Virus record (IMG/VR): IMGVR_UViG_3300031555_004524
Location: 64,001-128,000 of that record
Reading direction: 5' to 3' (one strand)
Length of the DNA: 64,000 bases
From: a virus
Lineage: Duplodnaviria > Caudoviricetes
Of this stretch, positions 41,491 through 43,245 are shown piece after piece; positions within the stretch are counted from its first letter, which is position 1, and each line of letters begins with the position of its first letter. The position numbers and the translations under genes were made by a program. The notes below the pieces were generated by a model. It was not told the DNA's origin. It did no database searches and saw only the letters and a list, made by a program, of their open reading frames with translations.

Positions 41491-43245
41491 TTATTTTTTA
41501 GGATTTACTAAACCATACTGTTCATAGTATTCATCTGGCACGTCGATATATCTATCAAATGGTACTTCTGGAGCAATATATTCAGAATGATCCAAATATG
41601 CCATTGCATAAATTTTTGGAGGTGCAGTTTTATATTCATTCATATACATGATTTCGAATACATGTGTTAAGAAGATTCTTACTGCATATCTCTTTGCTCT
41701 GGTATCAATATGTGCATCTGTTAATTTTCCATCCTGATATGTTTTGTATGTAACGGTTTTATCATCCCAGTTTTTGCTGATTAATGCATCTGCTACCTGT
41801 TCTGTATATTCATAGTTATTGTTCTTTTCATGTTCATATATTTTTCTTTCTCTATATAAACGTCCATATAAAGAATTTGGATGATTTGAACGCTTCAATA
41901 AACTATCACCAATCTTCCAACAGATTAATTTCAAATCTGCATTGTATGGAGGTTTAGCTAAAATAGCTGAAACTTCTGCATATGATAAGTATTTAGGAAG
42001 CTGTTTCTTTACAGGTCCAAATTTATTTCCATACATAGCAGTATTAATACTATTTGAAATTGACACTGGATTTCTTGTACTTACATTTCCGACAATAGTA
42101 ATAACACTTGGAACTACTCTATTTGAGTTAGCTAAGTATAAGCAATAATCGCATAATAATTCTGCAGGATCACTGAAAGTTGCCAATGAAATAGCTTCTA
42201 CTTCAGCTTTTGCTTTTCTTAAATGAATTGGGAATGGCTGATAATCGTAAGATAATTTGCCTTTCTCTTTAAGATCTTCAATAATTGATAAAGTTTTGGA
42301 ATCATCAATCATATATGTATCTTCCATATACCATAATAATTCTTTTCTCTGTTTTTCAATTAATTTTCCACTTAAGCATTCTTCGATATTCTGCATCCAG
42401 TCTAAAATATCTTTCCCATAATCTTTTAAGAAAGCAGTAATTGCTTTTCTCTGAGTTGCATCAAAATCTTTTGGATCTTCTGCTTCTGCAATAGGGTCAT
42501 AATTGCCATCTTCTGCTAAATATGGAACAAGCACCATATTTTTAAGATTATCGGAACCATAAACATCGTGCTCGATATCGAATGCTTTACCAAGATCTTT
42601 AAGAGCTTTCTTGAATTTTGTGCCGTATATATCTAAGCATAATAAAGAATCTTCAACTACTTTCATTTTAAGAGTATGAATTCTCTTAACAATACCTACT
42701 AATTCTTTAGCTTTTTCTTTACCAAGCCATGGATTGTTATTGTCATTCTGCCCAGCATATGATAAGAACTGATTTGCATTGTGGCATTTTGTAATATCTA
42801 AATATGCTAATAATGCTGCCGAAATTACTGGTCCAATACCCACTGTAGCTTTTGCCCATGAGCCAATAGGATGGTTATCAGTGTAAACATCGAGCATCTT
42901 CTTAATCTGGTTTTCTTCGTTACGTTTATTTCTAGCTAACCATTCCATAGATAATGGTACATCTCTACCTTCACCATCAACCTTCTGGCTAATAGCTCTC
43001 ACCTGATTGTCTTTTGCTTTTCTATCATCCTGAGACTGATAGTATGCATCTACCAAATAGCGTAAGTCTTCTTTGCTAATATGTACTACAGATTCCTGCA
43101 CTTTCTTACTTAAATTAGCGAGACCCTGAACATCGATTTCGATAGCATCGTCATATTTTTTCTGTTCTGCAGGTGTGACTTTTCTTGCTTTCTTTACATT
43201 CTGTTCCATTTTTTCTTTCTTTTCTGTTGTAACTTTTCTTGCCAT
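41491..43245 (-). CDS. Tas-like Nop/IS110-C-domain RNA-binding protein with a large insertion
   Basis: LRYLVDAYYQSQDDR coiled coil, HPIGSW..TVGIGPVISAALLAYLD..FLSYAG, and PYNADLKLICWKIGDS..LYGRLY..HIDTRAKRYAVRIFL. No N-terminal DEDD RuvC and no catalytic Ser loop; flanked by 36-nt arrays. Confidence 0.8.
   Translation of the reverse strand: MARKVTTEKKEKMEQNVKKARKVTPAEQKKYDDAIEIDVQGLANLSKKVQESVVHISKEDLRYLVDAYYQSQDDRKAKDNQVRAISQKVDGEGRDVPLSMEWLARNKRNEENQIKKMLDVYTDNHPIGSWAKATVGIGPVISAALLAYLDITKCHNANQFLSYAGQNDNNNPWLGKEKAKELVGIVKRIHTLKMKVVEDSLLCLDIYGTKFKKALKDLGKAFDIEHDVYGSDNLKNMVLVPYLAEDGNYDPIAEAEDPKDFDATQRKAITAFLKDYGKDILDWMQNIEECLSGKLIEKQRKELLWYMEDTYMIDDSKTLSIIEDLKEKGKLSYDYQPFPIHLRKAKAEVEAISLATFSDPAELLCDYCLYLANSNRVVPSVITIVGNVSTRNPVSISNSINTAMYGNKFGPVKKQLPKYLSYAEVSAILAKPPYNADLKLICWKIGDSLLKRSNHPNSLYGRLYRERKIYEHEKNNNYEYTEQVADALISKNWDDKTVTYKTYQDGKLTDAHIDTRAKRYAVRIFLTHVFEIMYMNEYKTAPPKIYAMAYLDHSEYIAPEVPFDRYIDVPDEYYEQYGLVNPKK

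Follow-up and report, generated by a model that had tools for sequence, protein, structure and literature searches.

In the genome of a Caudoviricetes phage from the gut we found a TasA protein, the nuclease-free type of TIGR-Tas protein, in which a folded, all-helical domain of 256 residues occupies the wedge position of the Nop domain. The stretch of DNA analysed (hereafter the window) is 64,000 nt long and covers positions 64,001 to 128,000 of IMG/VR record IMGVR_UViG_3300031555_004524. The host is probably a gut Firmicute. Although of a known kind, the system has a form not described before; it shows no sign of a new enzyme, and the reading that we favour, with a probability of roughly 0.6, is that of a TasA with a non-catalytic wedge lobe that grew in steps, not a new class of effector. 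The appeal of TIGR-Tas systems is that they bind DNA under RNA guidance, are very compact and need no PAM; the prevailing view is that the dual-repeat Nop core is compact and invariant, with insertions holding longer guide RNAs. In this phage lineage, the wedge carries a folded domain of 70 to 256 residues and the guide is unchanged.

A nuclease-free Tas protein flanked by dual-repeat arrays

The tasA gene (41491..43245, minus strand, as are all features below) was identified from the ORF list; it encodes a protein of 584 aa (P0001) and is the sole tas gene, at a single locus, in the 248,162-bp phage genome. Its product scored 154 bits (E 4e-45) against the NCBIfam model NF052498 TIGR_Tas_endo, for which the cut-off is 100 bits, and a profile search against the PDB matched TaTasR (PDB 9mty) at E 8e-21 and SpTasH (PDB 21kl, 9w04) at E 2e-10. 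AlphaFold2 modelled the whole protein with a pLDDT of 91.6 and a pTM of 0.86. When this model was searched with VIA-align, TasH (21kl_A; Z 18.3, rmsd 3.4, 225 residues aligned) and TasR (9mty_B; Z 17.6, rmsd 2.2, 194 aligned) were matched over model residues 56–564, starting at the coiled coil. A first-pass annotation, made from the DNA letters and ORF translations, had already named the product as a Tas Nop-domain protein, and both the family score and the fold matches bear this out.

The domain layout is that of a TIGR-Tas protein: a coiled-coil dimerisation hairpin, then a Nop-type C-terminal domain. A Lys-rich N-terminal tail (aa 1–56, 43078..43245; pLDDT 58–82, net charge +4) leads into the hairpin (aa 57–125, 42871..43077), the two helices of which (58–86 and 98–123) align with the coiled coil of TasH and TasR. 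The Nop domain is divided into CTD1 (aa 126–174, 42724..42870; aligned to TaTasR 138–212) and CTD2–CTD5 (aa 431–584, 41494..41955; aligned to TaTasR 231–263 and 269–318, and to PHROG 4285 positions 161–272). CTD1 contains a GIGPV helix-hairpin-helix and the motifs FLSYAG and ND.N.PWLG, in which G136, G138, P139, G165 and W173 are invariant across 121 homologues; a weak match to Pfam Transposase_20 at aa 136–165 stayed below the cut-off (15.9 versus 21.3 bits). Near the C-terminus, the loop H553-x-x-Y556-I-x-P-E (41566..41589) aligns to ‘GHVDYIKP’ of TaTasR, with H553 invariant and Y556, P559 and E560 nearly invariant among the same homologues. It is a candidate for the tigRNA-processing site of dual-repeat Tas proteins, in which a Tyr/His dyad takes part in processing (PMC13421893; Xu et al. 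2026, bioRxiv 10.64898/2026.09.09.750476).

Just 56 residues lie upstream of the coiled coil, and neither Pfam nor NCBIfam detected a nuclease domain (HNH or RuvC) in the protein. The N-terminal HNH or RuvC domain that sets apart the TasH and TasR subtypes is therefore missing, and by the published definition the protein is TasA. The enlarged segment described below, aa 175–430, likewise gave no HNH, RuvC or intein family match, in agreement with the initial reading of the motifs. The further proposal of a subtype other than TasA was not supported: a nuclease-free Tas is TasA by definition, and the relatives form a graded series within one family, from no lobe to full lobe.

Dual-repeat arrays flank tasA on both sides, as expected of a TIGR-Tas locus. 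The downstream array (41109..41370), recognised by TRF (period 36), pattern scans and inspection of the sequence, consists of 7–8 units of 36 nt with the structure AAATGAATTA-N9-ATATAGTTA-N8. It is closed by a terminator hairpin (41068..41109; a stem of 18 pairs and then a T run), which is the published layout of a TIGR array (Faure et al. 2025, PMC12045711). The upstream array (43424..43895) is eroded, with ~13 units of period 36–37 carrying 2–3 mismatches each. Pattern scans returned 13 and 17 matches, versus 0.76 and 0.75 expected by chance. Both arrays are of the plain dual-repeat kind, with no stem-loop or extended tigRNA accompanying the insertion, which separates the locus from stem-loop Tas systems. 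The spacers of 13 units, taken in all strand arrangements, had no site in the 248-kb genome at 0–1 mismatch, and at 2–3 mismatches the site counts equalled those of reversed-spacer controls.

The closest described counterpart is the dual-repeat TIGR-TasA type, represented by FpTasA of Flavonifractor plautii (Faure et al. 2025, PMC12045711). Shared features are the phage-encoded, nuclease-free Nop protein with its coiled coil and conserved His/Tyr C-terminal loop, and the flanking terminator-ended arrays with two alternating 9–10-nt repeats, 8–9-nt spacers and a 36-nt unit; the difference lies in the wedge, a short loop there and a 256-residue helical domain here. Faure et al. 2025 (PMC12045711) describe TasA as consisting of a Nop domain by itself, and according to Xu et al. 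2026 (bioRxiv 10.64898/2026.09.09.750476) the Nop core of dual-repeat Tas proteins stays compact and conserved. The present protein, with its large folded domain, does not fit the description of a compact Nop free of accessory domains, and it departs from what has been published on the dual-repeat core.

The additional domain replaces the wedge of the Nop domain

In Tas proteins, the two strands of the target DNA are separated at the edge of each guide-DNA duplex by the wedge, an element of the Nop domain. The segment comprising aa 175–430 (41956..42723), positioned by alignment, is bounded by the anchors F160-L-S-Y-A-G165...P172-W173 and K431-P-P-Y-N435, which are invariant or nearly so in the 121 homologues; the coordinates, the anchors and their separation by ~255 residues are exactly as first annotated. 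Relative to every reference tested, the segment is an addition. The alignment to TaTasR runs to ‘YAG’ at residue 212 and restarts at 231, and the segment stands in for the 21-residue wedge G210–K230 of that protein (limits as given in the Methods of bioRxiv 10.64898/2026.09.09.750476). The corresponding element of SpTasH measures ~15 aa. In the family models, positions 110–127 of NF052498 are replaced by ~263 aa and positions 150–160 of PHROG 4285 by the segment. The protein therefore has the Nop fold, the coiled coil and the wedge point of TaTasR and SpTasH, and differs from them in the absence of RuvC and HNH and in the size of the wedge.

A more distant relationship links the protein to the IS110 bridge-RNA recombinases, which possess a homologous RNA-binding Nop-like domain (ISCro4, PDB 9t56, structural match Z 12.2; IS621, PDB 8wt6, profile match E 4e-4). 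The insertion point follows an ‘AG(L)’ motif that in IS110 precedes the serine loop, and the IS621 alignment stops at residue 237, a few residues short of the loop with the catalytic serine, which we take to be S241. The comparison of the segment with the catalytic wedge loop of IS110, drawn in the first-pass annotation, is roughly right in this sense: the alignment ends shortly before that loop. The RuvC domain and the recombinase serine loop are absent here, and the IS110 family model NF033542 scored 18.5 bits, far below its cut-off of 140, which places the protein outside the family. With respect to the DNA, the wedge of TasR and TasH serves as our guide, and by this analogy the additional module would lie next to the target.

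A confident fold with a conserved base and a variable lobe

When aa 175–430 were modelled alone, AlphaFold2 returned an all-helical domain of 13 helices with a pLDDT of 94.0 and a pTM of 0.89, a confident counterpart to the ‘helical-looking’ appearance noted initially. Structure searches with this model did not rise above noise in Foldseek against the PDB (best E 0.63), in a wide VIA-align search (best Z 4.0), in a second VIA search of the PDB (best Z 3.1) or in BFVD (best E 0.53). Cas10d, Cas12X2 and Cas13d were considered as fold relatives and rejected, as their scores (Z 3.4–4.0, the best to any Cas protein) are noise. Pfam, NCBIfam and PHROG gave chance-level matches only on the segment (TRAPP at E 0.1–0.18, DUF3963, and phrog_11300 at E 0.01 over 35 residues). 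The prediction of a wedge-domain homodimer from two copies scored 0.04, a value that carries no weight for or against contact between wedges. Judged from the model, the wedge domain is well folded and has no counterpart among known Tas domains or other known folds.

Comparison of homologues divides the segment into two layers, a basic base of ~75 residues (aa 175–192 and 373–430) and a lineage-specific lobe of 180 aa (aa 193–372, 42130..42669), which in the AlphaFold2 model pack together as one domain. The N-terminal helix of the base (42670..42723; net charge +3, pI 10.0) has an occupancy of ≥0.99 in the 121 homologues, and the C-terminal part (41956..42129; net +5, pI 10.1) one of 0.97–1.0 except in a variable loop at aa 405–413. 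G175 is invariant, K178 and A179 are nearly so, and R391 is kept in at least 90% of the 121 homologues. All 121 protein-search homologues possess the base, including the forms of 357–370 aa; in the 362-aa homologues, such as P0022, its two parts are joined without aa 193–372. Compact relatives lack the base. The original description of the whole segment as an insert is correct against the reference proteins, but within the family the lineage-specific part is restricted to aa 193–372, and the base is common property.

The lobe has an occupancy of ≤0.6, falling to ~0.1 in its middle, and is strongly acidic (net −12, pI 4.65); acidity was found in 10 of 11 homologues tested (−5 to −15), the remaining one (P0012) being neutral. 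Its identity to the closest homologue (P0002) is 57%, versus 84% for the core, and outside this pair the values drop to 11–29% versus 47–56%. Among 19 long forms, no residue of the lobe is invariant or nearly invariant. At the same time, pN (0.13–0.28) is well below pS (0.56–0.74) and dN in the lobe is two to three times that in the core; dS is saturated (1 or more), so that dN/dS values are rough and only these inequalities are used, qualitatively. The sequence comparison indicates that the lobe evolves faster than the core, yet under purifying selection. Taken as a whole, the segment is a real, folded and conserved module.

Wedge length classes and a proposed stepwise enlargement within one family

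Across the 121 homologues, the anchor-to-anchor segment measures 58–77 aa in 50, 127–175 in 44 and 188–257 in 27. A set of 84 viral or genomic relatives has only ~10 residues at the wedge position at 56 loci, 51–70 at 17, 147–156 at two and 188–200 at nine. Alignment with these short homologues, a check suggested alongside the first annotation, thereby separates compact relatives from base-only and lobed forms. The length classes (about 10, 60–70, 140–175 and 190–257 aa) are clade-specific: on a tree built from the core only, three length classes require 8 changes, versus a shuffled mean of 54.9 (FastTree alone, with weak deep branches, support 32). Because the outgroups TasR, TasH and IS110 have short wedges, the distribution implies enlargement by gain rather than loss. 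The TIGR unit remains constant at 35–36 nt in relatives with wedges of ~10, 60–70, 150 and 190–200 aa.

A profile built from the insert alone and run against 1.84 billion proteins recovered six Tas representatives and nothing else, always at the same position. Internal duplication was considered as an origin of the lobe and rejected, as neither hhalign between lobe thirds nor self-BLAST revealed a repeat.

Proposed role of the wedge lobe and alternative explanations

By extension from the family, TasA would dimerise through its coiled coil, the His/Tyr loop would trim the array transcript into 36-nt tigRNAs, and the protein would bind, without cutting, DNA that matches both spacers. The most likely outcome would be a block of transcription or replication at a competitor or host target, given that nuclease-free TasA represses its targets under RNA guidance (Xu et al. 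2026, bioRxiv 10.64898/2026.09.09.750476). In the history that we propose, the short wedge loop would first have become the small basic helical base (aa 175–192 and 373–430), which probably retains nucleic-acid contacts, and the acidic all-helical lobe (aa 193–372) would then have grown stepwise from its tip. The helical REC lobes of Cas9 and Cas12 are accessory parts inserted into compact RNA-guided ancestors beside the guide-target duplex. The wedge lobe may follow the same logic as a non-catalytic accessory at the DNA unwinding junction, an analogy confined to its being an all-helical accessory lobe, as it has no detectable structural or sequence relation to REC. Since the lobe is acidic and variable, we infer that it acts through bulk or protein contacts rather than nucleic-acid binding or catalysis. 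It could make the roadblock bigger or more stable, close off the DNA groove, or offer a surface for docking or shielding. For evolutionary work, the family offers a natural series (no lobe, base, medium and full lobe) in which the gain of accessory lobes by RNA-guided proteins can be followed; to engineers, it points out the wedge as a site that tolerates large insertions next to target DNA.

Acidity and fast evolution of the surface are as compatible with a specific protein partner as with a passive role. The lobe might be a recruiting platform through which a phage or host protein acting in trans (e.g. a nuclease, topoisomerase, polymerase or silencing factor) reaches the sites that the tigRNA specifies, a possibility that we regard as real although unlikely. 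A variable surface under purifying selection is what a protein interface would show, and it sits where the TasH wedge loop, which helps to close the DNA groove, docks that protein's own HNH domain (PMC13421893); some TasA genes share an operon with the gene for a ParB-like partner (Faure et al. 2025, PMC12045711). The relatives examined also have a type II topoisomerase gene beside the tas locus, which lies between the two subunit genes in locus L008 and the clade of the window and borders on one subunit elsewhere. However, L008 has a wedge of 70 aa, the neighbourhood looks like inherited synteny, no gene was found to co-occur specifically with long-wedge forms in the relatives examined, and the lobe showed no conserved surface motif. 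The narrower proposal of a purpose-built docking platform for a separate effector (e.g. the flanking type II topoisomerase, a nuclease or a polymerase) on guide-specified DNA strikes us as rather improbable. Recruitment, if true, would explain effects of nuclease-free TasA beyond steric blocking, and a docking platform would amount to a fourth, trans-acting functional class of TIGR-Tas in jumbo phages.

It is very unlikely that the lobe accommodates a different guide RNA architecture. The precedent is found in stem-loop Tas proteins, where clade-specific Nop insertions (wedge insertion, insertion 1 and insertion 2) co-vary with tigRNA features and hold extended stems (bioRxiv 10.64898/2026.09.09.750476). 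Those insertions resemble the present lobe as lineage-specific additions at defined points of the Nop core, the wedge included, but here the guide is a uniform 36-nt dual-repeat unit, its length does not follow wedge class, and the domain is helical and acidic. We give still less credence to a new enzymatic effector domain, that is, a fourth catalytic Tas class. A confidently folded domain of no known fold next to target DNA makes an unrecognised activity conceivable, to judge from the model; against this stand the lack of any invariant or nearly invariant residue, the low identity of the lobe outside the closest pair, its all-helical and acidic character, the absence of a Pfam, NCBIfam or PHROG family match, and the fact that large parts of it are missing from shorter relatives. 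The same observations speak against the novel effector initially proposed for this segment. Foreign or selfish in-frame DNA (an intein, a mobile-element remnant or a translated intragenic tigRNA array) is scarcely credible, even though one TasA gene, that of BlTasA, has tigRNA units within the stretch that encodes the wedge (Xu et al. 2026, bioRxiv 10.64898/2026.09.09.750476). The tasA ORF contains no TIGR unit at up to 3 mismatches, and the segment is under purifying selection, forms one domain with the base, and has no profile homologue outside Tas, in unrelated genes or free-standing. An intein identity was rejected on an all-alpha model, on the lack of any Hint or intein family match at E up to 10, and on junctions without the Cys/Ser/Thr and His-Asn residues of inteins.

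A tblastn search of a phage GenBank collection with the TasA protein gave no match, none of the homologue clusters carried a name, and cellular genomes contributed four loci only, all in metagenome bins. One of these, on a contig of 246 kb, again has the topoisomerase as a neighbour, because of which the metagenome-bin loci look like phage contigs.

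A TasA protein between two TIGR arrays

The tas gene (ORF 41491..43245, minus strand) encodes a 584-aa protein, P0001, and is the sole tas gene of the 248,162-bp virus record, which is rated complete and has a G+C content of 26–34%. Tandem arrays of 36-nt units lie on both sides of it and on its strand, the dual-repeat TIGR array layout already published (Faure et al. 2025, PMC12045711). The downstream array (41109-41370, minus strand) comprises 7–8 nearly perfect units of the form AAATGAATTA-N9-ATATAGTTA-N8 and is closed by an 18-bp terminator hairpin (41068-41109), whereas the upstream array (43424-43895, minus strand) holds ~13 eroded units that recur every 36–37 nt and show 2–3 mismatches in each repeat pair. 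Further hairpins bound the arrays at 43920-43953, 43376-43408 and 41449-41479. Pattern scans found no tigRNA (guide RNA) units inside the gene, and spacer matches to the phage's own genome did not exceed the reversed-spacer control. One extra unit fitting edge-N9-loop-N9-edge occurs just beyond the window, ~22 kb from the tas gene (G000:C1:172869 in phage genome coordinates, approximately window coordinate 65565), and perhaps belongs to a third array; two isolated matches elsewhere in the genome (G000:C1:12741 and 15548) may be due to chance.

P0001 matched NCBIfam NF052498 (TIGR-Tas system RNA-guided endonuclease; E = 4e-45, 154 bits, cut-off 100 bits), and a profile of 121 aligned homologues, drawn from a 5.8-billion-cluster protein collection, matched TaTasR (9mty, E = 8e-21) and SpTasH (2e-10) in the PDB. 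Its whole-protein AlphaFold2 model (pLDDT 91.6, pTM 0.86) aligned with TasH (Z 18.3, rmsd 3.4, 225 residues), TasR (Z 17.6, rmsd 2.2, 194 residues) and the IS110-family ISCro4 (Z 12.2), with Nop5 (Z 6.5) and Prp31 (Z 6.2) scoring lower. Ahead of the coiled coil lie just 56 residues, rich in Lys, and Pfam and NCBIfam searches detected no HNH or RuvC family, in agreement with the first-pass annotation. P0001 is therefore a TasA under the published definition, and the separate subtype which that annotation had proposed is not supported. An H553-x-x-Y556-I-x-P-E motif, invariant or nearly so among homologues, pairs with GHVDYIKP of TaTasR and fits a candidate His/Tyr tigRNA-processing loop, as reported for dual-repeat systems (PMC13421893; Xu et al., bioRxiv 10.64898/2026.09.09.750476).

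The extra segment maps to the Tas wedge

At first pass, ~255 residues of no recognised kind had been noted inside the Nop domain, between FLSYAG...PW (aa 160-173) and KPPYN (aa 431-435). Both anchors lie at these positions in P0001, and window positions 41956..42723 are exactly aa 175-430. Compared with compact Tas proteins, the figure holds: ~263 residues replace NCBIfam model positions 110-127, eleven positions of PHROG 4285 are replaced, and of 84 viral and genomic relatives, 56 show only ~10 residues at this site. The wedge is the loop parting the non-complementary DNA strand from the guide-paired strand, and in TaTasR it is defined as G210-K230 (Xu et al.). In the profile alignment, TaTasR follows P0001 through 'YAG' (TaTasR residue 212) and restarts at residue 231, in the helix beginning at N435 of P0001; because this gap coincides with the published wedge, the alignment assigns everything from G165 to N435 to the wedge. 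Right behind FLSYAG, an ND.N.PWLG motif (aa 165-175, window 42721-42753) is invariant or nearly so in all 121 homologues, and for the majority of compact viral relatives the match to the N-terminal core model ends just ahead of it; the motif may mark a wedge-domain-bearing subfamily.

A shared basic base and a lineage-specific acidic lobe

Alignment with short homologues, a comparison suggested at first pass, separated two layers. The base (aa 175-192 and 373-430) is present in all 121 homologues, including proteins of 357–370 aa, and is small, helical and basic (net +3 and +5, pI ~10), with a nearly invariant R391; the 180 residues between (aa 193-372, the lobe) are lineage-specific. Anchor-to-anchor lengths were 58–77 aa (n = 50), 127–175 (n = 44) and 188–257 (n = 27), with 257 aa seen only in P0001 and one metagenomic relative (74% identical) and 250–251 in a sister group of six clusters. 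On a FastTree phylogeny of core columns only, whose deep branches are weak, the three wedge length classes clustered strongly, with 8 changes versus a shuffled mean of 54.9, and the eight proteins with a 178–180-residue lobe formed a single clade (97% support). Since TasR, TasH, IS110 and most viral TasA carry short wedges, the change ran toward gain, and helices were added in nested fashion in the alignment, not as a single block. The TasA wedge would have grown in steps, the basic helical base first and the acidic helical lobe later. Several short-wedge homologues (P0047, P0058, P0064, P0066, P0084) have long N-terminal extensions, with up to 304 residues ahead of the wedge anchor versus 147–190 in most homologues; different clades therefore add mass at different sites.

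The first-pass annotation had also proposed structure prediction and a Foldseek search. Modelled alone with its alignment (AlphaFold2), aa 175-430 formed 13 helices (pLDDT 94.0, pTM 0.89), with no credible match in Foldseek PDB, VIA-align or BFVD comparisons and none to the segment among Pfam, NCBIfam and PHROG families. Against 1.84 billion representative proteins, a lobe-only profile returned six matches, all of them Tas proteins of the same clade and all at the same position, so at HMMER sensitivity the lobe is not a domain common to other proteins. Profile comparison of lobe thirds and self-BLAST gave no internal repeat. A homodimer prediction with two copies of the wedge domain scored 0.04, which favours neither self-association nor its absence. 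The lobe of P0001 is acidic (net -12, pI 4.65), as it is in 10 of 11 tested homologues (-5 to -15; the exception, P0012, is neutral), and has no invariant or nearly invariant residues among 19 long forms. Identity in lobe versus core was 57% versus 84% for the closest relative, 26–29% versus 56% for the sister group, and 11–22% versus 47–52% beyond it. Across six genes, non-synonymous differences per site were 0.13–0.28 in the lobe versus 0.06–0.11 in the core, below synonymous differences of 0.55–0.74, which are saturated and make ratios rough; this pattern shows purifying selection on the lobe, weaker than on the core.

Possible role of the lobe

An acidic lobe with no conserved residues, dispensable in close relatives, argues against an enzyme, and hence against the "novel effector" first envisaged, as well as against direct nucleic-acid binding. 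We nevertheless argue, from purifying selection and the confident fold, that the lobe is functional. Taken together, this evidence favours a lobe that is accessory and non-catalytic, sits where the DNA unwinds and acts probably via bulk or protein contacts (probability roughly 0.6). Such a lobe could stabilise or enlarge a roadblock, close the groove, or serve in docking or shielding. Its main rival, a lobe dedicated to partner recruitment, seems to us rather unlikely; the TasH wedge loop already helps dock a domain (PMC13421893), so present data do not separate recruitment from an accessory lobe. By analogy with the family (PMC13421893; Xu et al.), P0001 would dimerise, process its own 36-nt tigRNAs, bind DNA through two spacers and repress without cleavage.

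Comparison with described systems and gene neighbourhood

Published Tas papers class the wedge among several variable Nop segments. Faure et al. 2025 (PMC12045711) portray TasA as a Nop domain on its own, lacking accessory domains, and dual-repeat Tas have been described as having a compact, conserved Nop core and a uniform 36-nt guide (Xu et al.); P0001, in contrast, carries a 256-residue wedge domain. The TIGRSafari resource aside, we found no literature account of dual-repeat TasA whose wedge is a large helical domain; the variant is of specialist interest and engineering use, and not a new class of system. In stem-loop Tas, longer guide RNAs go along with Nop insertions (Xu et al.), whereas relatives of P0001 keep a 35–36-nt unit whether the wedge has ~10, 60–70, 150 or 190–200 residues.

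Type II topoisomerase subunit genes (GyrB-like and GyrA-like; 38590-40971 and 43957-46374) flank tasA, one on either side. Relatives with 70-, 147-, 156-, 188- and 196-residue wedges and the sister group share a topoisomerase neighbourhood. This resembles synteny inherited within one phage lineage and not a lobe-specific link. The tas locus lies between the two genes in this phage, the sister clade and locus L008 (70-aa wedge), and downstream of the GyrA-like gene in other relatives (L005–L007, L013, L029 and similar); L087, L088 and L090 were, like L008, noted for their topoisomerase arrangement, and in L088 a nitroreductase gene is inserted into the gap. Among 185,579 species genomes only four matches were found (L001–L004), all on contigs from metagenome bins, with the labels Firmicutes, Izemoplasmatales, Vampirovibrionales and Clostridium sp. 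The 'Izemoplasmatales' contig, of 246 kb, has the same topoisomerase neighbour and is thus probably a mis-binned jumbo phage.
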